64,000 bases of DNA from an uncultured Candidatus Saccharibacteria bacterium. GTDB taxonomy: Bacteria; Patescibacteriota; Minisyncoccia; UBA6257; 2-01-FULL-56-20. The stretch spans positions 6,183-70,182 of the forward strand of contig CAZMPQ010000001.1 of NCBI GenBank assembly GCA_964568535.1, read 5' to 3'. Below, piece after piece: positions 7,902 through 64,000 of this stretch. Under the pieces are notes generated by a model. That model was not told the origin of the DNA and ran no database searches. It was given only the letters and a program-made list of their open reading frames with translations. The position numbers and the translations under genes are program-made. Position 1 is the first letter of the stretch. Each line of letters opens with the position of its first letter.

Positions 7902-7963
7902 TATCCCAAAGTATATAAGCGGCCCTACAATCGCACAACAATCATTTCATCTGATTGTGACGC

Positions 7964-30100: not shown

Positions 30101-30328
30101 ACCGGTCACGTAGGCGGTGCCGCTTGCGGTGAGGTTCCTACCGTTTCCTGAGGAATCGCTTGCATCCTCAAAGTGGTAGAGGGCGGTGACGGAGCTTGAG
30201 GGGATGTATACAGTGGCGGAGGCGGGGTGGGGGAAGAAAAACGCCGCCAAGATGGCGACGGTAGGGACGGCGAGGACAGCGGCGGACGTTATTCCACCGA
30301 ACGGAACGACCCTGGCGTTCCTGAACAT
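27152..30328 (-). CDS. very large secreted surface protein: signal peptide, two LamG_3 (concanavalin A-like) domains, an Ig/FN3-like region, a parallel beta-helix and a C-terminal metzincin (M10-like) catalytic domain
   Basis: Starts MFRNARVVP followed by a hydrophobic helix. The LamG_3 domain ends are ALYHFEDASDSSGNG...IDELFFMNTRISTSTRNALWNSG and ALYHTDHHFAADASGNH...IDEVVVLNRALTAGEVTKLWNSS. The beta-helix repeats include TGGATTVTESAIHDNDYGLYITGG. The zinc motif is THELGHALGLAHS, and the conserved C-terminus is FDPHRLKNIIQWQ. Confidence 0.75.
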   Translation of the reverse strand: MFRNARVVPFGGITSAAVLAVPTVAILAAFFFPHPASATVYIPSSSVTALYHFEDASDSSGNGRNLTASGTAYVTGWFGNAGDTQGTGWFRASSSAMDLSSDFSIGFWINAQATLDDDAVISRRSAGADSIEQISRAQACAAGVLEFVDGTPPCEMQYTTSSPPVGAWQWHLLTRTGSSVEWYVNNTIVTSGSDSDTTNFTTDICVNGRSANVNPVCNAAALGDFHIDELFFMNTRISTSTRNALWNSGSGDTICVTVGCTSSTPPSIGDLLQFKSNGTTSLAEGATTAETSVVLKAIPNSSSTNQLIVQVELATSTSFAGPMTQTSSPVAPGAQASTTVSSITPGSWYWRARAQDTVTFATSSWTQFGTADVFDFTVETDPSPYLQITDGAIRALYHTDHHFAADASGNHYTLTNYGPAATGTGVLGTAADFGTDNTTKYLYASENLGISGGAMSLAAWVKFASIASGDQEIVSVVDSGTDVAYGIEYTGGSTRTLYCQRNRWGAANETASWTNGGNGLATSTWYHVACTFDGTSLRLYVQNDLKAEAAAGSGNGTSAVDTGTGIGAHGGYPSGGGYGKISAMIDEVVVLNRALTAGEVTKLWNSSQGRRVCAQSSGCGGLLSGTIATSTTWSKAEGPYIVSSTVTINAGKTITIEPGTIIKFKPSTSLIVNGELDVQGGALSSTLVYFTSYKDDSVGGDTNGDGGATAPVAGDWGHIQINSGASTTIAGSVVRYGGSTASSTIYVTGGTLNARYTDISYSSDYGIYSTGGATTVTESAIHDNDYGLYITGGTVTVASSTIYNNATSSAWKTGSPTSTMKWNFWGGWYPLDDTYDGSSEKNTSTENAGPWHATQNTSGTGAKISDYIDADNYYTAYLSHPNVNTWSPLAVYTNTSTYVMRVGSSTQYQTQLEDGIDTWNDTTVGYINLEKASSYPNSQWDVAAADITSSTLDWAGLYVPRGWAWFYIPSSTSIAHIYFNTARMGVEMNKQCVTTHELGHALGLAHSPEGNLMDQTCQIGSSQTNLSAQDISDFRLLWTPALHPIFDPHRLKNIIQWQ

Positions 30329-39079: not shown

Positions 39080-42000
39080 TTACCATTGAATGACGTGCTT
39101 CATCCGGTGTGGGTCAAAGAAGTAAGACGGGCTCCAGAGAAGATTGAAATTGAATAAATCTAAAATGCCTAATGTTGTTTGGGGCTCAAGAATTCCTGGG
39201 AAGTAATCGCATGAATGACGCGCCATAATACTATCCCCGTATTCAGTGTGCGATAAACCTAACGCATGACCAATCTCATGGGTTGCAACACATTGTTGCG
39301 AGTCTGAGTAAGAATTCATTCCATTTGTGTTGAATATAATGTGAGCGGTACTCGTAACAAATGGATACCACAATCCCGCCCACGATGAGGTGTCTACTGT
39401 GATATCAGCCACGTATATATCCCAGGTATCACTCGATGACGCACTTGCATTGACGACCATCACATAGCCCGATGACGAAGCGTTCCATGTGCTCATACCA
39501 TCAATAAGTTCTGATTGGTATTGCGTAGAGCTTCCCACTCTCATTTTCAGAGTACTAGAATTCACTCCAGGCGGAGACCATGTTGACTCACTAGGACTCG
39601 CAATAAATGCACTCATGTATGGACTAATGTCAATGTAATCCGATACGTCATCACCTGCTCCTGATGGGTTTTGACCAGAATGGTAAGGTCCTGCGTTGTC
39701 GGTAGATGTAGAGATATCATCAAGCGGAAACCATCCTCCCCAGAAGTTGTTGGTCATCGTAGATGTCGGCCCCGATGCATCGTGGAGCGCACCGTAGCCT
39801 GCAGTCGCATTGCTGAAGACGGTACTTGAAGACATCGTCACATTGTTGCCGCTCGTAACTCTTACGCCGTTGTAGTTGTCGTGTATTGAGGCGTATATGA
39901 TAGTCGTTGTTCCGGCCGTAAGGTACAAACCGTGCGTTTCTGCATAGGAGACATCGCTGTTTCTGATGTTCAGCACTCCCCCGTTGTTGTAGATATTTGC
40001 ATCACTTGCCGCATCTCCTCCGCCATATCTGACAACGCTTCCCACAAGCGTACTGCTCGCACCTGTATTGAACTTGATATGTCCCCAGTCACCTACCGCC
40101 GGCTGCGTCGTACTGTTGTTTGTGTCCCCTCCTACCGCATCATCGTGATACGACGTGAAATATACCAAGGTTGAGCTCAGGGCTCCTCCCTTCACATCAA
40201 GCTCTCCGTTCACGATGAGGGAGGTATTGGGTTTGAACTTGATGACGGTGCCGGACGCTACGGTGATTTTCACGCCGGAGGCGATGGTAGCGGTACTTGT
40301 GACGATGTATGGGGAGAGGTTGTGGGTCCAGGTGGTGCTTGCGGTGATAGTGCCGGAGAGGAGGTTCGCCGTGCCGCACCCTGCCGTCGTACACACTTCC
40401 GCACCGCTTCCGCTGTTCCAGAGCGCATTCCGAGTACTCGTGGATATCCGCGACGTGGACAGGAATAGTTCGTCAATATGCCAGCTGTGCTTGTAGTCGG
40501 CGTTCAAGCCGTTCACCTGGAGATCGGTGGAGTAGTTCGTGGTTGCGCTGTCGGTGAACGAATGTTGGCGCACGTTGTCCACGTAATAATCAACGATCGA
40601 GCCGCTGCGAAGCACTGTTACCCAGTACCACGTGGATGTCGCGAGAGAATAGGAGAAGTTCCCCTTGCAAGTCCCGTTGTGCCTGAACTCAAAGTTGTTT
40701 CCCGCGCACTGGGCGCCATACATCACCGCGTCATTGCTTGTTCCGCCCGTCGTCCTGCCGACAAGGGAAGTGTCGTTCAGGGCTTCCATCGGCTTCATCC
40801 AGAACCCAATAGAGAAGTCCCCCGAAAGGTCCATAGCGGATGAGGACACTGTCCAATATCCGGAACCCTGCGTAATGCCTGCGGTTGATAGCTTGCCCTC
40901 GGTAGATCCTGTCCCCCACGACGTGAGGTGGCGCGCGTTCCCCGAGGCGTCGGACGTGTCCTCAAAATGATACAGGCCGACAACGTTTGAAACCTCTACC
41001 CGCGGATTGGGAACGGTCTCCACCACGACGTCCACCACATTGTCTGTGCCGAATTGTCGCCAAGAGGATGTGGCGTTCGTCGCGGTATCCAGCGCTCTCC
41101 CTCGCCAATACCAGAATCCATCGGGGATGGCCGAGATGGTTGTTGTGGCATACGAGCTCGGAGTCACTGCGGTGCTTGTGCCGTGAAGTGCGTTCGTGAA
41201 CGACGTGCTCGTAGAAAGCTCAACTTGAAGCATGAGGTTGTTTGACGATGAGGAGTTCAAAAAAGCTTTGAAGAATACCGTGCTCTCCGCCGTGGTCGCG
41301 CCCTCGCTCAATGGGGTCGTGCCATCAGCTTTGAACTGCGTTGTTGAGGAGATGACGGGGATAGAGGAGGTCGCACATCCTAGTGTAGCGCATATCTCCG
41401 CCCCACTACCACTTGCCCAGAGCGCATCTTTCGTGCTCGTCGTGATGCGAGCGTTCATGAAAAAGAGTTCGTCCATAAGATAGGCGTGGTTGTACGATGA
41501 GCAACCGCCACCCGAGAGACCAAGGGCGCCGATACAGAGGTCGCTGCTGATATTTCCCGTCTCGCTGTCGGTGAACGGGAATACTACGCTGTTGTTCACA
41601 TAATAATCGGTGTTCGTTCCCGTTCGGGCGATGAGGAACCAGTACCAGGTGTTCGTCGAGAGCGTGTATGCCGAAGTATGGCACGTGTTGTTGTGCTTGA
41701 ACTCAACGTGGCTCCCCGCGCATGTATTCCCATAATACACGCCTTCGCGGGAAGAACCGGATATCCGATCAATGAACGGCGTGTCGTTCAGAGATACCTG
41801 TGGGTATATCCAGAATCCGATAGTGAAGTCGCCCGACAGATCCATAACTGATGACGATGCCCGGAGGAATGCGCCGCTCGCGAAGTTTGCCGCATTGGAC
41901 AGCGTACCAGTTGTGAACGTGGTCCCGGAAGCGTTTACGAGGTCGTGTCGGTTCGCCGATGACGTAACGGAGTCTGTCAGGTTCTCCATGTGGTAGAGGG

Positions 42001-42139
42001 CGGTGATGTTGGGGACGTACACGGCGGCGGAGGCGAAGCTTGGAAACAAAAACGCCACCAGAGTGGCGGCGAGGAACGCGGTGGAGAGAGCAACAAGCGT
42101 TGTTCTTTGTGACGGAACGACCCTGGCGTTCCTGAACAT
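39080..42139 (-). CDS. very large secreted surface protein with the same LamG, LamG, Ig/FN3-like, beta-helix and metzincin architecture (paralog of the 27152..30328 gene)
   Basis: I chose the start at the conserved MFRNARVVP; the ORF extends to 42199 across the poly-G tract. Carries ALYHMENLTDSVTSSANRHDL...MDELFFMNARITTSTKDALWASG, ATHEIGHALGLSH, DSIMARH (the Met-turn) and FDPHRMKHVIQW. Confidence 0.75.
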   Translation of the reverse strand: MFRNARVVPSQRTTLVALSTAFLAATLVAFLFPSFASAAVYVPNITALYHMENLTDSVTSSANRHDLVNASGTTFTTGTLSNAANFASGAFLRASSSVMDLSGDFTIGFWIYPQVSLNDTPFIDRISGSSREGVYYGNTCAGSHVEFKHNNTCHTSAYTLSTNTWYWFLIARTGTNTDYYVNNSVVFPFTDSETGNISSDLCIGALGLSGGGCSSYNHAYLMDELFFMNARITTSTKDALWASGSGAEICATLGCATSSIPVISSTTQFKADGTTPLSEGATTAESTVFFKAFLNSSSSNNLMLQVELSTSTSFTNALHGTSTAVTPSSYATTTISAIPDGFWYWRGRALDTATNATSSWRQFGTDNVVDVVVETVPNPRVEVSNVVGLYHFEDTSDASGNARHLTSWGTGSTEGKLSTAGITQGSGYWTVSSSAMDLSGDFSIGFWMKPMEALNDTSLVGRTTGGTSNDAVMYGAQCAGNNFEFRHNGTCKGNFSYSLATSTWYWVTVLRSGSIVDYYVDNVRQHSFTDSATTNYSTDLQVNGLNADYKHSWHIDELFLSTSRISTSTRNALWNSGSGAEVCTTAGCGTANLLSGTITASTTWTHNLSPYIVTSTATIASGVKITVASGTVIKFKPNTSLIVNGELDVKGGALSSTLVYFTSYHDDAVGGDTNNSTTQPAVGDWGHIKFNTGASSTLVGSVVRYGGGDAASDANIYNNGGVLNIRNSDVSYAETHGLYLTAGTTTIIYASIHDNYNGVRVTSGNNVTMSSSTVFSNATAGYGALHDASGPTSTMTNNFWGGWFPLDDISTSTDNAGPYHSGQNPSGAGDDVSDYIDISPYMSAFIASPSESTWSPPGVNSSTLKMRVGSSTQYQSELIDGMSTWNASSSGYVMVVNASASSSDTWDIYVADITVDTSSWAGLWYPFVTSTAHIIFNTNGMNSYSDSQQCVATHEIGHALGLSHTEYGDSIMARHSCDYFPGILEPQTTLGILDLFNFNLLWSPSYFFDPHRMKHVIQW

Positions 42140-42165
42140 GATGATTGAACGATACCACGGAGGAA

Positions 42166-42177
42166 CCCCCCCCCCCC
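42166..42177. repeat. homopolymeric tract, C12 on the plus strand (G12 on the coding strand), 26 nt upstream of the conserved start of the 1039-aa gene
   Basis: Read directly. On the coding strand the context is GTGCGGGGGGGGGGGGTTCCTCCGTGGTATCGTTCAATCATCATG. With 12 G the tract is in frame with an upstream ATG at 42199. Confidence 0.8.
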
Positions 42178-42199
42178 GCACAAGCGGGGATGTGCACAA

Positions 42200-48304: not shown

Positions 48305-49831
48305 TTATCGGGCCACTTCCACCGCGCGCATTTCACGGATGACCACCACCCGTATCTCGCCCGGATATTTGAGCTCCGATTGCACGCGGTTCGCCACTTC
48401 GCGGGCAAGCTCCAGCGCACGGAAGTCGTCCACCTTTTCCGGCGTGACAAAGATGCGCAGTTCACGCCCAGCCGAGATGGCGTACGCCTGTTTCACACCC
48501 GGAAAATCCATCGCGATCTTCTCCAGGTCCGCAAGCCGCTTGATGTAGTGCTCCAGCGTGTCGCGCCGCGCACCTGGCCGGGCGGCGGAGAGCACGTCCG
48601 CCGCGGTTACGATGTGCGCTTCGGCGTTCCCGTACGGATAGTCCTCGTGGTGCGATTGCATCGCCGTGATAACGGCCTCGTCCACGTTGTATTTTTTGAG
48701 AATCTTCATCCCGAGATCCACATGCGTTCCCTCCACATCGTGGTCGATGGCTTTGCCGATGTCGTGGAGGAGCGCTCCCTTTTTGGCCACCTCAACGTTC
48801 AATCCGAGCTCGCCCGCCATCGCGGCAGCAATGTAGGCCATCTCCATGGAGTGCGTGAGGACGTTCTGGCCATAGCTCGTACGGAAGTGGAGCCGCCCCA
48901 AAAGCTGCAAGAGCTCCTTTGGCAGGTCGTACACGCCAACCTCCATCGCGGCGGCTTCTCCGATCTCCAGGATGCGTTTCTGCAACTCCTGTTTCGCCTC
49001 CTCAACCTTCTCTTCTATCTTCGCCGGCTGGATCCGCCCGTCCTTGATGAGCTTCTGGAGCGCGATCCGCGCAGTCTCGCGACGATACGGGTCAAAGGAC
49101 GAAATGATGATGGTGTCCGGCGCTTCGTCAACGATGAGCTCCACGCCAGTTGCGCGTTCCAATGCGCGAATATTCCTTCCCTCGCGGCCGATGATCTTGC
49201 CTTTCAGGTCGTCGTCGCCACCCAGCGGGAACGCGCTCGTCGTGAGCTCCGAAACGTGCGAGCGAGCGTACCGCTGTAACGCGACGGTGATGATGCCGAG
49301 CGCGCGCTTTTCCACCTCGTCAACTTTTTCTTTCTCAAATTTCTGCAGGACCTGCGCAAGCTCCTGTTCATGCATCCGCTGCATGGTGTGCACGAGCTCC
49401 TCTTTCGCCGCCTGCACGGAGAGTCCTGCGACTTGCTCCAGCTTCCGGCTCATTTCCTCTTCGCCGGATGCAAGGCGCGTTTCGCGAGCTTTCAACTCCT
49501 CTGCTTTCTGCTTGAGCTTCGCATCATCCGCGTCCATCGCTGCGCGACGCTTATCAAGCGTCTCTTCGCGTTGGAGCAGCCGCTCCTCTAAAGCGGTTAT
49601 CTTCGATTTCCGTTCGCGCTCATCGTTCTGCGCGTCGAGCAAAAGCGCCGCCGCTTTTTCCTTCGCGTCGGCAGTTATCTTCTTCGCCTCCGCTTCTGCG
49701 GCGTCCTGGCGAACTTTTATCTGCTGCTCAGCGGACTGCGAATCGCGGAGTGCCTGCGCCCGCCGGATGAGATATCCAGCGATGCAACCAACCACAAGCG
49801 CGCCAGCTCCTACAAGGAGTGTTGTCGTCAT
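48305..49831 (-). CDS. rny: ribonuclease Y
   Basis: An N-terminal TM segment, a coiled-coil region, a KH domain (GKIIGREGRNIRALE) and an HD domain (LLHDIGKAIDHDVEGTHVDLG). Confidence 0.85.
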   Translation of the reverse strand: MTTTLLVGAGALVVGCIAGYLIRRAQALRDSQSAEQQIKVRQDAAEAEAKKITADAKEKAAALLLDAQNDERERKSKITALEERLLQREETLDKRRAAMDADDAKLKQKAEELKARETRLASGEEEMSRKLEQVAGLSVQAAKEELVHTMQRMHEQELAQVLQKFEKEKVDEVEKRALGIITVALQRYARSHVSELTTSAFPLGGDDDLKGKIIGREGRNIRALERATGVELIVDEAPDTIIISSFDPYRRETARIALQKLIKDGRIQPAKIEEKVEEAKQELQKRILEIGEAAAMEVGVYDLPKELLQLLGRLHFRTSYGQNVLTHSMEMAYIAAAMAGELGLNVEVAKKGALLHDIGKAIDHDVEGTHVDLGMKILKKYNVDEAVITAMQSHHEDYPYGNAEAHIVTAADVLSAARPGARRDTLEHYIKRLADLEKIAMDFPGVKQAYAISAGRELRIFVTPEKVDDFRALELAREVANRVQSELKYPGEIRVVVIREMRAVEVAR

Positions 49832-50044
49832 GAGTAAGGAAGATCCCCCGATCCGTTCTCAGGTATATGGCTGATGTCATAGTTCCGAACACGTGAACAA
49901 AGGGACCCCAATGGGTGAATGACTCTTTGGTAATATCGTAGGTTCAGTATATCTCCCGCCGCGACGTTCGTCAATCGTCCAAAGCCGAAAATCCCCCCTC
50001 CGAACGTTCACGAACGCCCCCGGATGGCGTACAATGGTCACTGT

Positions 50045-51583
50045 ATGACCAAGCGACCCGTTGTGCTCATCATCTTCGATGGTTTCGGCATCGGCGCGCA
50101 GAACGAATCGAATCCCGTCCATGTCGCGAACCCCCAGAACCTGAAGTGGCTCGGGGAAAATTATCCACTCACGTCGCTCCAGGCCTCCGGCATCTCCGTG
50201 GGACTCCCGTGGGGCGAGGTCGGGAACAGCGAAGTGGGACACCTGACCCTTGGCGCCGGTAAAGTGGTCTACCAATACTATCCCAAGATCACGATGGCCA
50301 TTGAGGATGGGAGCTTCTATCAGAACGAGGTCTTGAAGGCTGCGTGCGACCATGCGAAAAAGAACAACGGCTCCGTGAACTTCGCTGGCCTGCTTTCTAA
50401 GGCGAACGTGCACGCATCGCTCCAACACCTCCAGAAGCTCGTCCAGATGGCGGAGCAAGAGGGCGTCCCGCGCGTGAAGCTCCACATCTTCTGCGACGGC
50501 AAAGACAGTCCGCCGCACACGGTCTTTGAATTTCTAAAGCAGATACCGATGGACAAGGTGGCAAGCATCATGGGGCGGCACTACGGCATGAATCGCAGCG
50601 ACCATTGGGAACTGACGGAACGCGCCTACCAGTGCATGACCGGCCAGCTCGGCGACATCACGACCGATCCTGTGCCGCTCATCCAAGAGATGTATCCGAA
50701 GAACCTGTCCGAAGAGTTCCTGCCGCCGCACCGCATGGGCGACGGCACAGGCGTCACGGACGGCGACGCGCTCGTGTTCTTCAACTTTCGTGAAGACAGC
50801 ATCCTGCAGATCGCTGAATCTTTCGCTATGCCCGGCTTCGATAAGTTCAAGACGCTGCCATTCCAGAACCTTTATGTCGCGACCTTCACACGGTACAGCG
50901 AAAAACTCGCGTGTCCGGTCGCCTTTCCCGCGGACACGGTCGAAAAGCCGCTTGGGCAGGTCCTCGCGGAGAACGGATTCACGCAGCTGCGGCTCGCGGA
51001 ATCCTACAAGCATGCGCATGTCACTTTTTTCTTCAACGGCCATCGCGAGGAGCCCTTCCCCGCCGAGTACCGCGTGCTCATCCCCTCCCTCCCCACGACG
51101 CATCCCGAAGAACATCCGGAGCTCATGGCGGGGCCCATCACCGACCGGCTTTTGGAGGCCATTCAGAACCGCGGTTTTGATTTCATGCTCGTGAACTATT
51201 CAAATTCCGACACCATCGCGCACACCGGCAATTACGACGCGTGTCTCACCGCCGTGAAGGTTCTGGACGAACAGCTCGGCCGCATCCTCAAGGTAGTCCT
51301 CGCCACCGATACCATCCTCATCCTTACGTCCGACCATGGGAACATGGAAGAGGTCATTAGCCCCGTGACCGGTGAATTCGAGACCCAGCATGACGCGAAT
51401 CCCGTGCCATTCTATATGGTCGCGAAAGAGTTCAAGGGGCGGAAGTTCTTCAATTATTCGAACCTTCTGCACGAAACGACCGGTGTCCTTGCGGATGTCG
51501 CACCAACCATTCTCGAGCTCCTTGGCATCCCGAAACCTCCGGAAATGGGCGGCCGGAGCCTACTCAAGGACCTGCTCCCCTAG
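50045..51583 (+). CDS. gpmI: 2,3-bisphosphoglycerate-independent phosphoglycerate mutase
   Basis: Carries KRPVVLIIFDGFG, SGISVGLPWGEVGNSEVGHLTLGAGKVVYQ and TSDHGNMEE. I chose the start at MTKRP (50045); the ORF opens at 50024. Confidence 0.85.
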   Translation: MTKRPVVLIIFDGFGIGAQNESNPVHVANPQNLKWLGENYPLTSLQASGISVGLPWGEVGNSEVGHLTLGAGKVVYQYYPKITMAIEDGSFYQNEVLKAACDHAKKNNGSVNFAGLLSKANVHASLQHLQKLVQMAEQEGVPRVKLHIFCDGKDSPPHTVFEFLKQIPMDKVASIMGRHYGMNRSDHWELTERAYQCMTGQLGDITTDPVPLIQEMYPKNLSEEFLPPHRMGDGTGVTDGDALVFFNFREDSILQIAESFAMPGFDKFKTLPFQNLYVATFTRYSEKLACPVAFPADTVEKPLGQVLAENGFTQLRLAESYKHAHVTFFFNGHREEPFPAEYRVLIPSLPTTHPEEHPELMAGPITDRLLEAIQNRGFDFMLVNYSNSDTIAHTGNYDACLTAVKVLDEQLGRILKVVLATDTILILTSDHGNMEEVISPVTGEFETQHDANPVPFYMVAKEFKGRKFFNYSNLLHETTGVLADVAPTILELLGIPKPPEMGGRSLLKDLLP

Positions 51584-54959: not shown

Positions 54960-55041
54960 GGGGATGTGGCGGAACTGGCATACGCGTACGCTTCAGGAGC
55001 GTATGGAGCAATCCTTGAGGGTTCAAATCCCTCCATCCCCA
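54960..55041 (+). tRNA. tRNA-Leu (anticodon CAG), a type II tRNA with a long variable arm
   Basis: Hand-folded. The acceptor stem pairs GGGGATG with CATCCCC. The anticodon stem TACGC/GCGTA carries the loop TTCAGGA. The T-arm is GAGGG-TTCAAAT-CCCTC. CCA is not encoded. Confidence 0.7.
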
Positions 55042-55222
55042 CGAGCAGTAAATAAAAAGTCGTTATTGCCACACACCACAACACAAGAGAAATTTGTCGC
55101 TCGGGATTTGAACGGGAAAGGGGTCGGGGAAACGGGAGTTTCCCCGTGGAGGAAAACAGCCCCGCCAAATGGCGGGGCGCTAGAAACCGAGAGGTGTCTA
55201 GGGAGCGAATGAAATGAGCGAC

Positions 55223-55342: not shown

Positions 55343-57256
55343 ATGATGATACAAAAACCAAAACAGCCGCTCCGGCGCCCCGGAGCGCAGAAGCGCGGTA
55401 GCGCGCACGGAGCGCAAAAACCAACGGGTCCTCATCAACAAGACCGCGGTCCTCGCCGCGGCCCACGCCGCGACCGCGGCCGGCACGCTCCCCCAGAAGG
55501 CCCGCGGAGCTTCGGCCAGATACGGAAAACCAAGCATTATCGCGACCTTCCGCCGGATGTGAACGGCGAGCAAAAACCAGCCGGCCCGCGCGACCAAAAC
55601 GCAGTGCGGTTCGTACCGCTCGGCGGCCTTGAAGAGATCGGCCGCAACTGTTCGTTCTTTGAATACCAGAACGAGATCGTTGTCGTTGACGTCGGCATCC
55701 AATTCCCCGAAGAGGAGACGCCGGGCATTGACTACATCATCCCGAACGTCGCGTATCTCGAGGGGCGGAAGCAGCACGTCAAAGCGCTCTTGCTCACGCA
55801 CGGCCACTACGACCATATCGCCGCCATCCACTACCTCATTGAAAAGCTGGGCAATCCCATCATCTACACGTCCAAGTTCACGAAGGCCATCGTGGAAAAG
55901 CGGCACGAAGAGTTCCCGAACGCGCCGAAGCTGAAGTTCGTCGCGGTAGACAGCGGCACTCGCGTGAAACTGTCCGAACATTTCACGGCGGAATTCTTCG
56001 AAGTAGAACACACCATTCCCGAAGCGTACGGATTCGCTCTTGAAACGCCCGTCGGGAACATGGTGAACTTCGGTGACTTCCGCCTGGATTACAACAAGAG
56101 CGGCGAGCCCCGACAGCTTGAGATATTTGACCGGCTTGGGGCAAAGGGCATCCACTCGCTCTTTATGGATTCCACGAACGCGGACATCACCGGCAGGGGC
56201 GCATCCGAAGAAACGGTGAAAGAGAACTTGGAGGCGCTCATCAAAGCCGCGCCAGGACGCATCATCATCACGTGCTTCGCCTCGCTCGTAGACCGCATCA
56301 TTGAGATAACGGATGTGGCCCAGCGTCTCGGCAGGAAGGTGGCGGTCATCGGCCGCTCCATGACGAGCAACTTGGAAATTGCCCGTCAGCTCGGATACCT
56401 CAAAGAGAAAAAGGACCTTTTCATCCCCATTGAGGAGGCACAGAAATACAAGGACGACAAAATCCTCATCCTCACGACCGGGAGCCAGGGTGAACCGAAC
56501 GCACAATTCATGCGCATCGTGAACGGCGAGCATCGCATCGTGCGATTGAAACCTTCGGACACCGTCGTTTTCTCGTCGTCCGTCATTCCTGGAAACGAAC
56601 GGAGCATTCAGGCCTTGCAAGACAATATCTCTCGCCAGGTGGATGAGCTCTATAACTCTAAATTACTGGACATCCACGCGTCCGGACATTGTCACAAGGA
56701 AGATCTTGCGCTCGTGCTCTCGCGTGTGAAACCGAAATTCGTCGTACCTATCCACGGGTACTACTTCAAACGGAAGTCTGTCATCAAGACCGCGGGTTCG
56801 GTCGGTATCGACCGAGATCGCGTTGTTCTCATGGACAACGGCCAGGTCGCCGAGCTCACGCCTGATAAGTTCACCGTGACGAACGAGAACGTTCCCGCGT
56901 TCTATGTGATGGTAGACGGCCTCGGCGTCGGCGATGTGGAGGAGGTGGTCATTCGCGACCGGCGTTCCCTCGCGCAGGAGGGCATGATCGTCACCATCAT
57001 TACTGTGGACCGACACAACGGCCGGCTCCTGAAGAATCCCGACATTATCTCGCGCGGGTTCATCCTCATGAAGGACAACCAGGAGATCCTGGACGAGATA
57101 CGAAAGCGCGTACGGAACGTCATGGCGGGGCTCCCAGCGTACCGTGAAGTTGAGCCGGACTACCTGAAGACCCTTATCCGCGACCAATTGGGCACGTTCC
57201 TGTACAATAAGACCAAGCGGCGGCCGATGATTCTCCCTGTTATCATAGAAATATAG
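55343..57256 (+). CDS. rnj: ribonuclease J (beta-CASP metallo-beta-lactamase), with an Arg/Pro/Gly-rich N-terminal extension of about 70 aa
   Basis: Carries HGHYDHIAAIHYL, the beta-CASP region and the C-terminal domain. The N-terminus reads RRPGAQKRGSAHGAQKPTGPHQQDRGPRRGPRRDRGRH. Confidence 0.85.
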   Translation: MMIQKPKQPLRRPGAQKRGSAHGAQKPTGPHQQDRGPRRGPRRDRGRHAPPEGPRSFGQIRKTKHYRDLPPDVNGEQKPAGPRDQNAVRFVPLGGLEEIGRNCSFFEYQNEIVVVDVGIQFPEEETPGIDYIIPNVAYLEGRKQHVKALLLTHGHYDHIAAIHYLIEKLGNPIIYTSKFTKAIVEKRHEEFPNAPKLKFVAVDSGTRVKLSEHFTAEFFEVEHTIPEAYGFALETPVGNMVNFGDFRLDYNKSGEPRQLEIFDRLGAKGIHSLFMDSTNADITGRGASEETVKENLEALIKAAPGRIIITCFASLVDRIIEITDVAQRLGRKVAVIGRSMTSNLEIARQLGYLKEKKDLFIPIEEAQKYKDDKILILTTGSQGEPNAQFMRIVNGEHRIVRLKPSDTVVFSSSVIPGNERSIQALQDNISRQVDELYNSKLLDIHASGHCHKEDLALVLSRVKPKFVVPIHGYYFKRKSVIKTAGSVGIDRDRVVLMDNGQVAELTPDKFTVTNENVPAFYVMVDGLGVGDVEEVVIRDRRSLAQEGMIVTIITVDRHNGRLLKNPDIISRGFILMKDNQEILDEIRKRVRNVMAGLPAYREVEPDYLKTLIRDQLGTFLYNKTKRRPMILPVIIEI

Positions 57257-57622: not shown

Positions 57623-58612
57623 ATGCCCGAACCAATTCTTGTATCAGGAATCCAGCCCTCCGGCCGTCTCCATATCGGGAACTACTTGGGCGCGCTCAAA
57701 AACTTCGTTGACCTGCAGAACTCGCGGAAATATTCCTGCTACTTCTTCCTCGCGGACCTGCACTCGCTCACCGAGTATCCCGCAGGCGCTACGGAGCAGA
57801 AAAAGCGTATTCTAGAACTCACCGCTGATTTTCTCGCGGCTGGTTTGGACCCGAAGAAATCACTCATCTACCAACACTCGCAGATCCCCGCGCATAGCGA
57901 AATGGCGTGGATTTTGAACACCATCACGCCGATGGGCGAACTGGAACGAATGACGCAGTACAAGGACAAGTCCGTGCGCCAACATGAGGTGAACGCTGGC
58001 CTCCTCACCTATCCGACGCTTATGGCCGCGGACATTTTGCTCTACGATGCGAAGTATGTCCCTGTCGGGAACGACCAGGACCAGCACCTTGAGCTCACAC
58101 GCACGCTCGCGCGAAAGTTCAATAAAAAATTTGGGAAGACGTTCGTTGAACCGGAAGGACTCCACACCGCGACTCCGCGTGTGATGTCTTTGAAAGACCC
58201 GTCAAAGAAGATGTCTAAATCTCAGCCGGAGACGTGCCTTTTTCTGGATGAATCCCCCGTTGAGCTAGAGAAGAAGATAAAAAGTGCAACGACCGACTCC
58301 GGAAGCGATGTGCGGTACGATGCGAAGGAAAAGCCGGGCATCTCGAACTTACTTGATATCTACTGCGGCGTAACCGGAAAAACTGTTCCGCAGGCGGTCA
58401 AAGAATTCCGCGGCAAGCAATACGGCGCCTTCAAGCAAAAAGTTGCGGAGGCGGTTGTGAAACATCTCGCGCCGTTCCGCACGAAAAAGGCAGCGCTCAT
58501 GAAAAAACCGACGGTGCTCGCGAAAGTGCTCGCAACCGGCTCGGCAAAAGCGGCGAAAGTCGCAGACGCGAAGATCGCAGGAGTGAAGGAGAAGGTCGGG
58601 CTTGCGCTCTAG
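57623..58612 (+). CDS. trpS: tryptophanyl-tRNA synthetase
   Basis: Carries the HIGH-class motif GRLHIGNYLG, plus KMSKS and GNDQDQHLELTR. Confidence 0.85.
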   Translation: MPEPILVSGIQPSGRLHIGNYLGALKNFVDLQNSRKYSCYFFLADLHSLTEYPAGATEQKKRILELTADFLAAGLDPKKSLIYQHSQIPAHSEMAWILNTITPMGELERMTQYKDKSVRQHEVNAGLLTYPTLMAADILLYDAKYVPVGNDQDQHLELTRTLARKFNKKFGKTFVEPEGLHTATPRVMSLKDPSKKMSKSQPETCLFLDESPVELEKKIKSATTDSGSDVRYDAKEKPGISNLLDIYCGVTGKTVPQAVKEFRGKQYGAFKQKVAEAVVKHLAPFRTKKAALMKKPTVLAKVLATGSAKAAKVADAKIAGVKEKVGLAL

Positions 58613-61600
58613 ACCTTTCGCACGCCGAGCCAGATATCAACGCCGTCCAGTTTTGCCTGGATCTCGGCGGTAAACTTCCCTTTCTTATACTCTATTGTCT
58701 TTGCGCCTACCTCGGTTTTGAGGAATTTTTCGTTCTCCTGAACGATCGCGCCGACGCTCGGCGCTTCTACCATCAGCACAATGGCGTCCTTCGCCTGAAG
58801 CCCGGCATTCTGCCGCAACTCCTGTACCATCCGCACGAGGTCGCGCAACGTTCCCTCGGCTTTGAGCTCCGGTGTAATGGTTGTATCGAAAACAACCTCG
58901 TCGTTCTTTGTCGCATCATCCCATACAATTTCCTTCACGTTTATCTCGTCTTTCAGGATACTGATGAGTTCTTTGTTGCTCTTGACACCTGATACCTGAT
59001 ACCTGACACGAACGGATGCGAGCGGCTGACGAACCTTAATACCAAGTTCCGCGCGCTTCGCGAGCGCTACGCTTGCAATGCGCCGTATTTCGCCCATTGC
59101 GGCAACCAGTTTCGCATCCATTTGTTTTTTGTCTAACGCGGGCCAGGTATCCAGATGCACCGACTCCTTTTCGCCCAATCCGTGATAGATGCTTTCCGCA
59201 AAGAACGGCGTGAATGGGGCCATCAGTTTCGCGGTCTCGCGCAATACATGCGCAAGCATTGCGGACGCGGCTTCGTAATCGGCTTTTGAATCGGGCTTCT
59301 GCAAACGCCGGCGCGAGCGGCGGATGAACCAGCGCGAAAGGTCGTCCACAAGCGTCTCTATCGCGAGTGCCGCCTCGCGTATCTCGTACTGCTCTAATTG
59401 TTTCGTCGCTTCGGCTATCGTCTCGTTCAACCGCGCTAGTATCCAACTATCCAACACATTTCCTGATACCTGATACTTGACACCTGACACCTTGGCGGCA
59501 TATGTCCGCCAAAAGATCAGCGAGTTGTAGACGATGAGGTGCACGCGCCGGAACGTTTTTTGGATGTCCACTTCGTCGAAGTTTTTCGGTTCGCCGAGCG
59601 GCGAATTCGTATAGAGATACCAGCGCACGGCGTCCACGCCATATTTTTCGATGACCGCGAACGGCTCCACGATATTCCCCTTGGACTTGCTCATCTTCTG
59701 CCCGTTCTTATCGTTCACAAGCCCGAGGCAGACGACGTTCTTGAACGGCGCGGGGTATCCGAGCGCGGTCGCGATTGCAACGAGCGTATAGAACCAGCCA
59801 CGCGTCTGGTCGATGCCTTCAGAAATATAGTCCGCAGGAAATGCTGACGGGCGCTTCCCGCGCTTCACGAACGGGAAGTGCTCTTGTGCGTATGGCATTG
59901 CACCCGAGTCGTACCATACGTCTGCGACCTCCGGCACACGACGCATCTCTCCCTTGCATTTCTTGCATGGGAGCGTGAGTTCGTCCGCGAACGGCCGATG
60001 GAGATCTACTTCGCCGGTATCGTTCCGCGGGATAGTTTTGAGCTCCAATGGGACCACTTCTCCGGTGCGCATGAACACATCGTTATGCAGCGATTTCTTC
60101 TCGGCTGTTTCTTTCTCCGTCCATCCATTCGCGATCTGCGAGAGCATCCAGATGGTATCTTCATGGCTCACCAAAAGTATCCGTTTCCCGGCATACGCCT
60201 TCTCGGTCCCTTGCAAGAAGTCCCATGCGCGCGTACGAACATCGCGAAGCGACTCGGCGCGTGGCACGGCATGTTCGCTGAATCGCATCTCCTGCTCGGG
60301 AATTTTTTTCTGATACTCCCCCACTGGCCGCCCAGACAGTTCCGCAAGTTGTATTTCACGAAGTCGCTTATCGAACAGAACTTTTTTAATGCCGAGCTCT
60401 TTTGCAACAATGGCCGCGGTTTCTTTCGTTCGAAGGATGTCAGATGCGATGATGACGTCTATCTTTTCCTTTTTGAGCCTCTTCGCGGCTTGCTTCACCT
60501 GATCTTTTCCGAGCGTTGAGAGGTGAAATCGCTGATTGCCCGAGTCAATGATGTGTTTGATGTTTCCTTCTGCCTCTCCGTGCCGAAGTGCGAAATAGGC
60601 ATTTTTTGCCCTCTTCCCGCGCGCGGAAAGTTCGTGCAAGCTTCCGATCACTTCGCGCGTATCGCACTTCTTGCACTCCCAAATTGGAAGCGGTACGCCC
60701 CAGTAGCGTTCGCGAGACAGGTTCCAGTCCTTCGCTTCGCGGAGCCACTCACCAAAACGGCCTTCTTTGATATGATCCGGCACCCACGTGATGCCCTTAT
60801 TGTTCGCGAGCAGTTCTTTCCGAAGCTTGGACATCGCGATGAACCACGACGTCCGCGCGTAGTACAAGACCGGCGTTCCGCATCGCCAGCAAAATGGATA
60901 TTCGTGCTTATACTTCTCTATGCGCAGGAGGTTCTTGTTCTTTGTAAGATGTGCGAATATCTTATCCTCGGTTTCTTTCGCCTTTGCGGACATGCCCGCA
61001 AGCCCGCCGGGAACTTCTTTCTTAAATATGCCCTCTTCCGTTACGGTGTGATGTTGCGGCAAGCCCACCTTCACGCCAAGTTGGTAGTCGTCCTCGCCGT
61101 ACATTACAGCGGTATGCACCACGCCCGTGCCATCCGTTGTTGTCACGAAGCTTGCAGGATATACCTTGTATGCCGCCTCGTTCTTCAGTGCCAAGATTTT
61201 GAACAGCGGTTCGTATTCCAGGCCAACAAGGTCTTCGCCGCTCACTTTGCCGATAACATCGTATTCGGTTTTGCCAAGCACCGCGGGCGCCAATTCTTCC
61301 GCTACCACATATGTTTCTTTCGCGCTCTTCGGCCGCACGAGCGCATATTTCACTTTTTCGCCCACTGCAAGCGCGACATTTCCCGGCAGCGTCCACGGCG
61401 TCGTCGTCCACGACAGAATAAAGAGCGGACCGTCTGTTTTAAAATGCGGCCTTGATAGTACTTTGAACTTCAGATAGACCGATTGGTCCTCTACTTCCGC
61501 ATATCCTTGGGCCAATTCGTGCGATGAAAGCGCCGTTCCGCACCGCGAGCACCACGGCACGACTTTGTGGCCTTTGTAGAGCAATTTCTTCTTCGCGATC

Positions 61601-62112
61601 TCCGAGAGCGTCCACCAGATGCTTTCAATATAGTCGGCGGAGTACGTGACATAGGCGTTCTTCAAGTCCAGCCAGTAGCCGATGCGCTCCGTGAGCCGCT
61701 CCCATTCGTCCTTGTAGAGCCAGACGGCTTTTTTCGCCTCTTCGTTGAACTTTTGAACGCCGAACTTTTCTATGTCGGCTTTGGACTTCAATCCGAGCGC
61801 CTTTTCTGCCGCAATCTCCACGGGCAATCCGTGCGTGTCCCACCCAGCTTTGCGCGGCACGCGATATCCCTGCATCGTTTTAAAGCGCAGGATGATGTCT
61901 TTCACGACGCGCGCGAGCACGTGGTGAATGCCCGGCTTCCCGTTCGCGTACGGCGGCCCCTCGTAGAAAACAAATATCTTTTTTCGTTTCGGATCGAGCG
62001 TCTTCTCGAATATCCGATTCGTTTTCCAAAATTCCAGTACTTTTTCCTCCACTTTTGGGAGGTCGAATCCATCGCTCAAAAAGTCACGGCGCGTAGCTGC
62101 CCTCTTTTGCAT
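58609..62112 (-). CDS. ileS: isoleucyl-tRNA synthetase carrying an inserted histidine-phosphatase (PGAM-like) domain
   Basis: Carries PYANGKPGIHHVLARVVKDI, the editing domain, KMSKSKGN and the anticodon-binding region. An insert of about 190 aa (residues ~500-690) carries ALRHGEAEGN...IIASDILRTKETA...ILLVSHEDTI. Confidence 0.85.
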   Translation of the reverse strand: MQKRAATRRDFLSDGFDLPKVEEKVLEFWKTNRIFEKTLDPKRKKIFVFYEGPPYANGKPGIHHVLARVVKDIILRFKTMQGYRVPRKAGWDTHGLPVEIAAEKALGLKSKADIEKFGVQKFNEEAKKAVWLYKDEWERLTERIGYWLDLKNAYVTYSADYIESIWWTLSEIAKKKLLYKGHKVVPWCSRCGTALSSHELAQGYAEVEDQSVYLKFKVLSRPHFKTDGPLFILSWTTTPWTLPGNVALAVGEKVKYALVRPKSAKETYVVAEELAPAVLGKTEYDVIGKVSGEDLVGLEYEPLFKILALKNEAAYKVYPASFVTTTDGTGVVHTAVMYGEDDYQLGVKVGLPQHHTVTEEGIFKKEVPGGLAGMSAKAKETEDKIFAHLTKNKNLLRIEKYKHEYPFCWRCGTPVLYYARTSWFIAMSKLRKELLANNKGITWVPDHIKEGRFGEWLREAKDWNLSRERYWGVPLPIWECKKCDTREVIGSLHELSARGKRAKNAYFALRHGEAEGNIKHIIDSGNQRFHLSTLGKDQVKQAAKRLKKEKIDVIIASDILRTKETAAIVAKELGIKKVLFDKRLREIQLAELSGRPVGEYQKKIPEQEMRFSEHAVPRAESLRDVRTRAWDFLQGTEKAYAGKRILLVSHEDTIWMLSQIANGWTEKETAEKKSLHNDVFMRTGEVVPLELKTIPRNDTGEVDLHRPFADELTLPCKKCKGEMRRVPEVADVWYDSGAMPYAQEHFPFVKRGKRPSAFPADYISEGIDQTRGWFYTLVAIATALGYPAPFKNVVCLGLVNDKNGQKMSKSKGNIVEPFAVIEKYGVDAVRWYLYTNSPLGEPKNFDEVDIQKTFRRVHLIVYNSLIFWRTYAAKVSGVKYQVSGNVLDSWILARLNETIAEATKQLEQYEIREAALAIETLVDDLSRWFIRRSRRRLQKPDSKADYEAASAMLAHVLRETAKLMAPFTPFFAESIYHGLGEKESVHLDTWPALDKKQMDAKLVAAMGEIRRIASVALAKRAELGIKVRQPLASVRVRYQVSGVKSNKELISILKDEINVKEIVWDDATKNDEVVFDTTITPELKAEGTLRDLVRMVQELRQNAGLQAKDAIVLMVEAPSVGAIVQENEKFLKTEVGAKTIEYKKGKFTAEIQAKLDGVDIWLGVRKV

Positions 62113-62168: not shown

Positions 62169-63857
62169 CTAGATCTTCTCTAGCACCCTGATACCCAAAA
62201 GACCAAGCCCCCACTTCAGCACGTCTGCAATAGTTGCGACGAGGAGGAGCCGCGCGTTGCGGCGGTTTTCGTTTTCGTCTTTCAGAATTGGCGTGGATTC
62301 ATAATAGCGGTTCGCGATATCGGCGAGTTCGTAGAGATATGTCGCGATAACATGCGGCGCAATGTCCCCCGCCGCGCGTGATACGGCATCCGGAAATTCT
62401 GAAACTTTTCGCATAAGATCAAGCTCTCCACTTGTTTCGAGATTTTTTGCATCACCTTCTGGAGCGGGTGATTTTGCGAGAATGCTCTTCATGCGCGCAT
62501 AGGTATATTGCAGATATGGACCGGAGTCACCATGGAAGGCGATGGAGTGTTCCATATCAAAAATGATGTCTCCGCCGATGCTTTGCTTCAAAATGGAATA
62601 GCGAATCGCGGCGATGGCAACGGTTTCCTGTATCTCCTCGCGCTCCGCATCGGTCAGTTCGCGTTCATTTATCTTTTCGTGAACGGCACGTTTCACATCG
62701 TCAATAAGCGATTCTGCGGTAATCACATCGCCGGTGCGCGAGGACATCTTTCCGGTTGGAAGACGCAACATTCCGTGGCCGATATGCTTCGTTTTTGCCG
62801 CTACTTCAGGCACAACAAGCTCCATCGCTTTCAGCAATACGCGGAAGTAGTCGTTCACCTCGTTTCCGGTCACGATGAGCGAACTGTCGGGATGATGCGT
62901 GTCGAATTTCTTCTTGTTCAAGCCCAATTCTTTCGCCTCGTAGGTCGGCAAGCCTTGCGCGGTCACAAAGACACGATTGTGGAGGCCGTGCTCCTCGCCC
63001 CGAAAGATGGTTGCGCCCTCGCTCTGCACGAAGATATCGGGGTGCGCCTTTACGATAGCAAGCCCGTCCGGCCCCGCTTCGCTTTCAAAGTAATACTGGT
63101 TGAACTTCGTGCCGAGCCGCGCGTAGAGCGTTTCAAAGTAGTCCAAGCTCCATTTCCGTCCGGCATCATAGAGCTCATTTACTTTCGCATCGCTCCGGTC
63201 GTATATCTTCTTGTTGAGTCCGTCCATCTCCCCTTTCGTCCCCGGGTCGTCATATGCTTTCGCGCCCGTTGCGTACGCCTCGCCGAGGAACGCAACTTTC
63301 TCTCCAAGTGACGCGTCAGTTTTCGGCATCTTTTCGCTCAGCCGCATCATCCCCCAAATGCTTTTTGCAACATGAAGGCCAACGTCGCCCTGATAATTCG
63401 CGCGCAGAACTTCGGCGCCCGATGCTTCATAGAGCCGCGCGATGGATTCGCCGATGACATTCGTCATGAGGTGGCCGATGTGAAACTGCTTGAATGGATT
63501 TGGGTCGGTATATTCCACCATCACGCGCTTCCCCTTCCCTACTTGCGGTACGCCGAACTTCTCGTCCTTTGCAAGCCGCGTAAATTCTGCCCGAAGCGTC
63601 TCATCCGTCAGCCAAAAGTTCACGAATCCCGGCGGAGCGGCTTCTACTTTCGTGAAAAATCCCGGCGGGGCGGCTTCTCCTATCTTCTTCGCAAGGTCTT
63701 GCGCGATTTCCATCGGCGGCTTTCCCGCCGCCTTCGCAAGCCGGAGCGCAACGCTCGTAGAATAATGTCCCATCTCCGCTCGCGGCGGAATTTCAATGAT
63801 CGCAACGGTCCCTGACGGAACCGCTTTCTGGAACAGCTCTGCAATGCGTTCTTTCAT
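62169..63857 (-). CDS. argS: arginyl-tRNA synthetase
   Basis: Carries FHIGHLMTNVIGESIARL (HIGH), the core catalytic domain and the DALR anticodon-binding domain. I chose the start at M40 (MKERIAELF). Confidence 0.85.
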   Translation of the reverse strand: MKERIAELFQKAVPSGTVAIIEIPPRAEMGHYSTSVALRLAKAAGKPPMEIAQDLAKKIGEAAPPGFFTKVEAAPPGFVNFWLTDETLRAEFTRLAKDEKFGVPQVGKGKRVMVEYTDPNPFKQFHIGHLMTNVIGESIARLYEASGAEVLRANYQGDVGLHVAKSIWGMMRLSEKMPKTDASLGEKVAFLGEAYATGAKAYDDPGTKGEMDGLNKKIYDRSDAKVNELYDAGRKWSLDYFETLYARLGTKFNQYYFESEAGPDGLAIVKAHPDIFVQSEGATIFRGEEHGLHNRVFVTAQGLPTYEAKELGLNKKKFDTHHPDSSLIVTGNEVNDYFRVLLKAMELVVPEVAAKTKHIGHGMLRLPTGKMSSRTGDVITAESLIDDVKRAVHEKINERELTDAEREEIQETVAIAAIRYSILKQSIGGDIIFDMEHSIAFHGDSGPYLQYTYARMKSILAKSPAPEGDAKNLETSGELDLMRKVSEFPDAVSRAAGDIAPHVIATYLYELADIANRYYESTPILKDENENRRNARLLLVATIADVLKWGLGLLGIRVLEKI

Positions 63858-64000
63858 GCGAATATTGACGGTGTCTTTCAGTGTGTTTGAATACCGTATA
63901 GTAAGCGAGGTGCGGCCCCCGTAAAATCGGGAATACCGTTCTGGGCGGCACGTGGGCCCGGAATCCCGCCTCAACGACGGTGGAACACGACCCCGCCAGA

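Follow-up and report, generated by a model that had tools for sequence, protein, structure and literature searches.

Why should an isoleucyl-tRNA synthetase (IleRS) carry a phosphatase in its middle? The question is raised by the ileS gene in a stretch of 64,000 nucleotides from an uncultured Candidatus Saccharibacteria bacterium (assembly GCA_964568535.1, contig CAZMPQ010000001.1, positions 6,183 to 70,182; this whole stretch is referred to as the window), whose product holds a histidine phosphatase between the two halves of a zinc knuckle. Few enzymes have been studied as closely as the aminoacyl-tRNA synthetases, and much has been written on their accessory domains for editing, tRNA binding or signaling; the domains described so far do not include a phosphatase. 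We find that the fused IleRS-phosphatase is real, widespread and undescribed, and that it is a lineage-wide trait rather than a peculiarity of the window protein; over a very large part of an uncultivated bacterial radiation, IleRS is associated with a phosphatase whose catalytic residues are intact.

A histidine phosphatase in the zinc-knuckle loop of IleRS

An earlier note on this DNA, made from its letters and a list of open reading frames, had described the host as an IleRS of 1167 residues with an in-frame histidine-phosphatase insert between two CxxC pairs, and on each of these points it proved right. The gene is one uninterrupted open reading frame (Table 1), and its product scores 874.6 bits against the NCBIfam ileS equivalog TIGR00392, well above the cut-off of 621.4. 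Besides the phosphatase, Pfam recognizes tRNA-synt_1, Anticodon_1 and the C-terminal DUF5915 domain of type-2 enzymes, and the best matches in the PDB are IleRS2 from Priestia megaterium (8c8w, E 7e-231) and IleRS from Thermus thermophilus (1ile). A full-length AF2 model of the window protein (predicted local distance difference test, pLDDT, 86.5; predicted template-modeling score, pTM, 0.80) superposes on IleRS2 structures with target-normalized template-modeling scores of 0.81-0.91. The signature HIGH motif is present in its swapped GXHH form, with H63 and H64 invariant among 60 aligned fused homologues (57-81% identity); this form has been tied to mupirocin hyper-resistance in IleRS2 and is confined to that type of enzyme (PMC10485003). 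The KMSKS loop and the nucleotide-binding WYDSG motif are also in place, as are the editing-domain motifs (TTTPWT at residues 236-241 and the conserved H333 and D342). As all motifs are conserved and this is the sole ileS seen in the window, we infer that isoleucine-specific aminoacylation is probably kept despite the insert.

The borders of the insert were set by alignment. Residues 497-701 of the window protein face only chain residues 476-485 of 8c8w, and four insert-less IleRS proteins from the candidate phyla radiation (CPR) span the same gap with about 8-20 residues; the insert is thus placed at about residues 499-700. It splits a zinc knuckle, whose two Cys pairs stand 232 residues apart in the window protein and roughly 35-65 residues apart in P. 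megaterium IleRS2 and the insert-less CPR enzymes, a range to which the earlier figure of about 60 residues in other IleRS proteins was an approximation. The split knuckle presumably matches the second of the zinc sites in the T. thermophilus enzyme (C461, C464, C502 and C504), with C480/C483 placed at C461/C464 by an offset from the 1ile alignment ranges. The catalytic core of the P. megaterium enzyme comprises residues 40-168 and 513-632 (PMC10485003), and these ranges place the insert in the connective-peptide region, just before the catalytic fold resumes with its second half.

The inserted segment is a folded branch-1 histidine phosphatase of the small PhoE/PspA/GpgP type, lying in frame in the zinc-knuckle loop of IleRS. 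His_Phos_1 (PF00300) matches it with 114.4 bits against a cut-off of 21.7, and the match falls inside the interval 60043-60615 that had been proposed for the domain; that interval covers the Pfam core and is slightly narrower than the insert as a whole. Modeled alone, the domain adopts the alpha/beta fold of the PGAM enzymes with a pLDDT of 96.3. All of the motifs quoted in the earlier note are present, and by sequence the insert keeps the full predicted catalytic set: the nucleophile H511 and its neighbor R510 in the RHG motif, a second phosphate-binding arginine (R561), the presumed general acid E586 and a second histidine (H650). In the 60 aligned homologues R510, H511, G512, R561, E586, H650 and the four cysteines of the split knuckle are all invariant, and the asparagine of RHGxxxxN (N517) is kept in 38; in some free-standing relatives the position of E586 is occupied by Asp. 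This constancy occurs in a segment whose mean identity among the same homologues is 49%, compared with 68-71% for the catalytic parts of IleRS, and invariant catalytic residues amid low overall conservation show that the insert is under purifying selection. A wider sample agrees: the 150 best cluster representatives of the family together hold about 165 copies of the domain, and nearly every copy retains the Arg, His, Arg and His residues, including both copies in proteins that have two.

The architecture does not stem from an error of assembly or gene calling. PF00133 and PF00300 are found together in all 120 of the closest IleRS homologues (56-100% identity, 1129-1258 residues), which come from independent NCBI, JGI, ENA and Logan assemblies and in many cases from contigs of 50 kb to 0.9 Mb; those with a labeled source are assigned to Paceibacterota, Parcubacteria or Patescibacteria. 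GC content is even across the insert borders, with no break. Two outcomes had been named that would undo the earlier proposal, the lack of a PF00300 match and an assembly chimera or frameshift. The strong PF00300 match disposes of the first, and the second is ruled out by the continuous reading frame, the even composition and the shared architecture. In the full-length model, pLDDT is 90-97 over most of the insert (the lowest ten-residue blocks have values of 84 and 87) and 91-94 through both linkers, and this confidence in the linkers suggests that the phosphatase is attached in a fixed rather than a floppy manner.

The phosphatase family, inside and beside ileS

What kind of phosphatase has been inserted? 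The structures nearest to the domain model are small-molecule phosphatases, namely glucosyl-3-phosphoglycerate phosphatase (6s2q, match score 22.7), the phosphoserine phosphatase PspA (4ij5, 22.7), PhoE (1h2e, 21.7) and a histidine-family phosphatase of the riboflavin pathway (9mmh, 21.2); protein phosphatases are more distant. Identity to any solved structure is only 23-28%, and the insert reaches none of the NCBIfam equivalog thresholds. It scores 84.8 bits against dPGM (dPGM_arch; threshold 225), 81 against the RNase H/acid phosphatase model PRK07238, its second-best match (326), 66.8 against the alpha-ribazole phosphatase CobC (162.9), 63.6 against PspA (350) and 34.9 against the phosphohistidine phosphatase SixA (74.5). 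The insert instead belongs to a family of its own within the histidine phosphatase superfamily, marked by features that it shares with its free-standing relatives: KNxY ahead of RHG, IIDSG, SDxLRTKETA, FDKRLRE and a C-terminal strand with GE[LV]R. Among fused copies the pI of the domain ranges from 5.2 to 10.0, so its charge is not consistently basic. A moonlighting glycolytic dPGM was considered and ruled out by the missed thresholds and by the window's own cofactor-independent phosphoglycerate mutase (iPGM; Table 1), whose presence means that the insert is not needed as a glycolytic mutase.

A search with the insert alone recovered free-standing proteins of about 190 residues, 38-42% identical to it, in metagenome-assembled genomes labeled Pacebacteria. 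In all five of the loci that were looked up, the gene stands between argS and ileS (argS-hisphos-ileS), separated from ileS by -4 to 57 nucleotides, and the accompanying IleRS, of 938-976 residues, has no insert. The window has argS followed by ileS, with the phosphatase inside the latter. A profile built from 11 free-standing sequences was scanned against a single genome for each species and yielded 175 confirmed loci, of which 80 were classified. The phosphatase lies within the ileS reading frame in about 64 of the 80, in lineages that include Sungiibacteriota and Colwell-, Yanofsky-, Wildermuth-, Wolfe- and Liptonbacteria, among others, and these inserts are only 30-52% identical to that of the window. 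In nine loci, Nealsonbacteria and Staskawiczbacteria included, it is a separate gene immediately upstream of ileS; in the others it is 0.9-1.3 kb upstream (two loci) or elsewhere (three), and one contig ends too early to tell. In most loci of both the fused and the split kind, argS lies upstream of these genes and in the same orientation. Neighbor-joining trees of the domain and of IleRS do not separate split from fused forms; as these trees carry no support values, the case for repeated fusion is argued from the distinct insertion sites given below.

Some free-standing copies lie away from ileS, and their neighbors gave no hint of function. In one locus (L015, 4238-7275) the order is argS-hisphos-recO, with the synteny of a split locus but no ileS in the usual place; where ileS has moved, the phosphatase has remained beside argS. 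Another copy (L062, 1581-2171), from the DPANN archaeon GW2011_AR19, adjoins a methylpurine-DNA glycosylase gene; members of the family thus occur in DPANN archaea as well as in CPR bacteria.

Searching 1.84 billion cluster representatives with a profile returned 895 clusters (50% identity) at E <= 1e-30, and the best 150 of these were examined. Free-standing proteins account for 100 of them, 98 with one domain and two with two domains. IleRS proteins make up most of the rest: 38 have one copy, nine have two, and one is an IleRS fragment with four tandem copies. The two remaining representatives carry the domain at the C-terminus of an arginyl-tRNA synthetase (ArgRS; P0185) and of a TsaC/Sua5-YciO-YrdC protein (P0259), and fused hosts outside the enzymes of tRNA metabolism are absent from the best 150. 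The four-copy fragment (P0151; 1161 residues, from a 3.9-kb ENA contig) consists of the N-terminal part of IleRS followed from residue 426 by four histidine phosphatases, all with RHG and the second Arg, and reflects either real amplification or an assembly problem.

Alignment distinguishes at least four insertion points in IleRS. Site A1, the type seen in the window, lies ahead of the DLHRP segment; A2 lies past the second CxxC; B is the loop between the WxDSG and GxDQTRGWF motifs; and C is the junction with the anticodon-binding helix bundle. The WYDSG motif of the window protein sits between the positions that correspond to A2 and B. Some proteins (P0196 and P0291) have B and C occupied and A empty. 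P0196 represents a cluster of six proteins, encoded on contigs of up to 1.06 Mb, and its homologues are IleRS proteins labeled Gracilibacteria, Peregrinibacteria or Peribacteria, most of them with PF00300. IleRS proteins with Gracilibacteria or Peregrinibacteria labels (1200-1860 residues; P0312, P0323, P0373, P0389, P0362 and others) are a hot spot for inserted enzymes in general; besides His_Phos, their sites B and C hold GNAT, P-loop kinase (AAA_33, AAA_18 and Zeta_toxin-like), DUF559/Vsr-like endonuclease and alpha/beta hydrolase domains. In a single protein (P0372), site B carries two tandem, apparently intact, COG0546-like HAD phosphatase domains (residues 566-760 and about 760-960, with DFDGV and DNDGV motifs) and no His_Phos. 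A 1339-residue IleRS that does have His_Phos (L074) ends in a 214-residue HD/HD_3 domain of the YfbR-like nucleotidase type (about 7830-8475).

The pairing is not strictly exclusive to IleRS, as a valyl-tRNA synthetase (ValRS) and the single ArgRS and TsaC fusions also carry the domain. The ValRS (L091, GCA_964532505.1, 17319-21332, plus strand) has 1337 residues, with the phosphatase at residues 508-692, right after HQIPVW in the loop homologous to site A, and a further insert of about 230 residues past it that has no Pfam match. The IleRS encoded 4 kb away on the same contig has no insert, and a metagenome scan for further pairs of ValRS and phosphatase found none. The ArgRS fusion, seen once, may be a read-through of argS into an adjoining phosphatase gene. 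The TsaC fusion, in which the phosphatase follows a threonylcarbamoyl-AMP synthase, was also seen once. A link between the phosphatase and the GXHH resistance motif was considered and ruled out, since IleRS proteins of both motif types occur with the phosphatase.

What the phosphatase may do

The insert is most likely an active small-molecule phosphatase that works in cis with IleRS, and we strongly infer that it is a functional partner of the synthetase and not a passenger. The genomic evidence for this partnership is unusually strong and consists of the alternation between neighboring gene and fusion, the use of at least four insertion sites, the presence of one to four copies with their catalytic residues kept, and the one replacement by HAD domains at the same loop; conserved neighborhood that alternates with fusion, repeated insertion and replacement by an analogous but unrelated enzyme are the usual marks of enzymes that function together. 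Across several CPR classes the two forms, a gene translationally coupled ahead of ileS and an insert, are interchangeable. The best overall explanation, which we hold to be slightly more likely than not, is that a catalytically intact histidine phosphatase in IleRS acts beside the synthetase as its functional partner, perhaps on a by-product of adenylation. In such a mechanism H511 would attack a terminal phosphoryl group to form a phospho-histidine intermediate, whose hydrolysis would complete a reaction taking place adjacent to the synthetase. The substrate class that we favor is a small nucleotide-derived by-product of adenylation (inorganic pyrophosphate, AMP or a related nucleoside phosphate), a tentative assignment that we consider rather more apt to fail than to hold. 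Clearing it locally would drive the activation and charging of isoleucine in symbionts with little energy to spare. The substrates suggested in the earlier note (a nucleotide, a tRNA end or alarmone-like products) are speculative but lie within the bounds set by these data. Three considerations point to an adenylation by-product: the structures nearest to the domain are phosphohydrolases of small molecules or nucleotides in type, as are the HAD and HD_3 domains that replace or accompany it; the WxDSG strand, which binds the nucleotide, has site A2 on one side and site B on the other; and all of the partners (IleRS, ValRS, ArgRS and TsaC) form an acyl-adenylate from ATP and release pyrophosphate.

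Several points weigh against the removal of an adenylation by-product. It does not readily account for why IleRS is so strongly preferred to the other 19 synthetases, and hydrolysis of AMP would waste purine in organisms that are unable to make purines. We know of no histidine phosphatase that serves an aminoacyl-tRNA synthetase, and this fold is not known to act as an inorganic pyrophosphatase, the only anhydride cleavage known from it being of the nucleoside-diphosphate and PP-inositol type. The GNAT, alpha/beta-hydrolase and endonuclease inserts of related IleRS proteins do not fit a theme of nucleotide by-products. The ValRS, ArgRS, TsaC and HAD cases are one observation each, with the ArgRS case perhaps a read-through of adjacent genes, and in one CPR lineage, on a contig of 1 Mb, IleRS lacks the insert and there is no copy within 5 kb of its gene. 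A query with E. coli Ppa gave no meaningful inorganic pyrophosphatase match in the window, which is too small a piece for this to say much. A bolder proposal is that the phosphatase would be a third, previously unrecognized catalytic center of IleRS beside those for synthesis and editing, required in much of the CPR for productive Ile-tRNA formation, either by destroying an adenylation product at its source or by repairing phosphorylated ends of tRNA-Ile on the synthetase, with split lineages forming an IleRS-phosphatase complex; we rate it as falling somewhat short of an even chance. If the coupling is true, a step in tRNA charging would need help, by product removal or end repair, in energy-poor symbionts with reduced genomes.

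The main rival is the healing of tRNA ends, which we regard as unlikely. While IleRS holds a tRNA-Ile that has been damaged or modified by a toxin, the phosphatase would remove a 3'-phosphate, a 2',3'-cyclic phosphate or a 3'-(pyro)phosphate from it, and so restore a chargeable CCA end or a ligatable end in the anticodon loop. All partners of the family belong to tRNA metabolism, and tRNA-specific toxins would account for the favoring of one synthetase. A kinase joined to a phosphatase is the hallmark of end-healing enzymes, and some related IleRS proteins have a P-loop kinase beside the phosphatase, the best solved relative of which is the polynucleotide kinase domain of the RNA-repair complex Pnkp1 (4xrp, E 1.2e-5). 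That match, however, is weak and generic and is found only in some distant IleRS proteins, no ligase is associated with the family, and the window IleRS, with neither a kinase nor a ligase domain, does not have the makeup of a Pnkp module. We know of no enzyme with the histidine-phosphatase fold that acts on RNA ends. RNA-repair systems do swap unrelated phosphatase folds (PMC4411300), and His_Phos, HAD and HD domains all occur in IleRS. The HAD replacement, though, is of the capped, COG0546 small-molecule type and not of the T4 Pnkp type, the nearest structures of the insert are all small-molecule phosphatases, and the domain is not consistently basic.

It is improbable that the domain is a co-expressed housekeeping phosphatase of the argS-ileS operon, acting on phosphoserine, a sugar phosphate or a cofactor or serving as a mutase, that has become lodged in loops tolerant of insertion, in a protein both large and essential and in organisms with streamlined genomes, and has no mechanistic link to IleRS. 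Its nearest characterized relatives are indeed metabolic phosphatases, unrelated enzymes seem to be inserted into CPR IleRS quite generally, some free-standing copies are found away from ileS (L015, L062 and L078), and the insert has changed faster than the core of the synthetase. Without selection for proximity, however, repeated independent insertion at four or more sites, multiple copies and analogous replacement are hard to explain. All fused hosts among the best 150 representatives belong to tRNA metabolism, and the glycolytic version of the idea is disfavored by the window iPGM and the low dPGM score.

A protective or regulatory role is very improbable. The phosphatase would dephosphorylate IleRS or another protein, reversing an inhibitory kinase, or would inactivate a phosphorylated antimetabolite or inhibitor of IleRS. 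The superfamily does include protein phosphatases (SixA, PGAM5 and Sts), the companion GNAT, P-loop kinase and alpha/beta-hydrolase inserts are typical of enzymes that modify small molecules and antibiotics, and the GXHH motif of the window protein attests to pressure from IleRS inhibitors. Yet the phosphatase accompanies GXHH and canonical HXGH enzymes alike (26 and 19 fused proteins, respectively), the protein phosphatases are among its more distant structural relatives, the SixA threshold is missed, and we know of no phosphorylated inhibitor of IleRS. Finally, an inactive structural insert or an artefact of assembly or gene calling is scarcely credible: although N517 is often lost, the invariance of the catalytic Arg, His, Arg, Glu and His residues rules out a pseudo-enzyme, and the continuous frame, even composition, confidently predicted fold and recurrence in 120 of 120 homologues leave no place for an artefact.

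The remaining features of the window lie apart from these arguments (Table 1). The ileS and trpS genes are convergent and their stop codons overlap by 4 nucleotides, which leaves no room for a terminator between them. The listed reading frame of argS begins at a TTG about 40 codons upstream of its likely start (MKERIAELF...), and the gap between argS and ileS is still 56 nucleotides. A 637-residue RNase J-like metallo-beta-lactamase protein, identified by eye from its HGHYDH motif, has an apparently disordered N-terminal extension of about 90 residues in which Arg, Pro, Gly and Gln are abundant. Two further proteins, each about 1050 residues long, combine a Laminin_G_3 (concanavalin-like) domain with a matrixin-type metalloprotease motif at the C-terminus and may be located at the surface or take part in host interaction. 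The window also encodes an RNase Y and a single tRNA.

Table 1. Positions of the IleRS, its inserted phosphatase and other features within the window.
Feature	Position	Strand	Remark
ileS, type-2 (eukaryote/archaea-like) IleRS, host of the insert	58609..62112	-	1167 residues, one uninterrupted open reading frame
G-I-H-H (swapped GXHH form of HIGH), residues 61-64	61921..61932	-	motif check
First CxxC pair of the split knuckle, C480/C483 (CKKC, residues 480-483)	60664..60675	-	invariant Cys
Inserted histidine phosphatase with linkers, residues 499-700 (about)	60013..60618	-	alignments to 8c8w and insert-less CPR IleRS
His_Phos_1 (PF00300) core, residues 509-668	60109..60588	-	E 6.8e-33
RHG motif: R510, nucleophile H511, G512	60577..60585	-	invariant in 60 fused homologues
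R561, second phosphate-binding Arg	60430..60432	-	SDxxRTKET motif (SDILRTKET here); invariant
E586, presumed general acid	60355..60357	-	DKRLRE motif; invariant in fused set
H650, second catalytic His	60163..60165	-	VSHE motif (VSHED here); invariant
Second CxxC pair of the same knuckle, C716/C719 (CKKC, residues 716-719)	59956..59967	-	invariant Cys
WYDSG, nucleotide-binding motif of the second half of the catalytic fold, residues 733-737	59902..59916	-	14 residues past the knuckle
KMSKS signature loop, residues 806-810	59683..59697	-	alignment and coordinate check
argS (ArgRS), directly upstream of ileS	62169-63974	-	marks the conserved argS-(hisphos)-ileS locus
trpS	57623-58612	+	stop codons of trpS and ileS overlap at 58609-58612
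iPGM (Metalloenzyme and iPGM_N)	50024-51583	+	8 kb from ileS
RNase J-like metallo-beta-lactamase protein	55343-57256	+	637 residues
tRNA-Leu(CAG)	54960-55042	+	sole tRNA gene of the window
RNase Y	48305-49831	-	RNase_Y_N, KH and HD
Laminin_G_3/matrixin-motif protein	39080-42199	-	about 1050 residues
Laminin_G_3/matrixin-motif protein	27152-30328	-	about 1050 residues

Comparison with known systems

A full-text search of the literature, which combined IleRS or tRNA synthetase with histidine phosphatase, phosphoglycerate mutase, CPR, Patescibacteria and Parcubacteria, returned no description of the pairing, and it goes unmentioned in a recent detailed paper on IleRS evolution and in another on the structure and phylogeny of the enzyme. 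The earlier note's statement that the fusion was not known to have been described stands for the literature and not for the databases, where the architecture is already present in hundreds of entries under automatic Pfam and JGI labels. Entries of 1150-1250 residues of this kind that are annotated as 'class I tRNA ligase family protein' or as hypothetical can be read as IleRS with an embedded phosphatase.

Among known enzymes, the type-2 IleRS proteins of P. megaterium (8c8u and 8c8w) and T. thermophilus (1ile) share with the window protein full-length homology, the editing motifs, KMSKS, both zinc knuckles, DUF5915 and GXHH. They differ in that a short loop spans the second zinc knuckle where the window protein has a phosphatase of about 200 residues, and none of the solved IleRS structures has such a domain. 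Database curators already recognize a CPR-type IleRS with an extra inserted enzyme, ileS_w_GNAT (NF040702), and many proteins of that kind also have His_Phos; the model is named for the acetyltransferase, however, and not for the phosphatase. The window IleRS scores 323 bits against its threshold of 1999 and has no GNAT domain among its Pfam matches. With the end-healing systems (T4 Pnkp and Pnkp1-Rnl-Hen1; PMC4411300) the window protein shares, as an idea, a phosphatase, with or without a P-loop kinase, that acts on tRNA and whose fold is interchangeable, but those systems use HAD or metallophosphoesterase folds together with a ligase, and the window IleRS has neither kinase nor ligase. PspA (4ij5), PhoE (1h2e), glucosyl-3-phosphoglycerate phosphatase (6s2q and 4pz9) and the riboflavin-pathway enzyme (9mmh) are free-standing metabolic phosphatases, whereas the window family resides in or beside ileS.

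Closer in concept are two enzymes in which the histidine-phosphatase domain has itself been joined to a partner. The RNase H/acid phosphatase of actinobacteria (PRK07238; Rv2228c/SCO2299 type) likewise unites a histidine phosphatase with a nucleic-acid enzyme, but it does so end to end and with another partner, whereas the window protein carries the phosphatase as an internal insertion; the phosphatase half of that fusion, too, is not known to have a settled role. In mycobacterial MutT1 (9cxx/3fjy; ranks 27-28 among the structure matches) the domain is fused to a Nudix domain, a nucleotide-processing enzyme, and acts on a nucleotide diphosphate, so that the histidine-phosphatase fold can remove a terminal nucleotide phosphate. 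The RNase H/acid phosphatase fusion and MutT1 are the nearest conceptual precedents for the phosphatase within IleRS.

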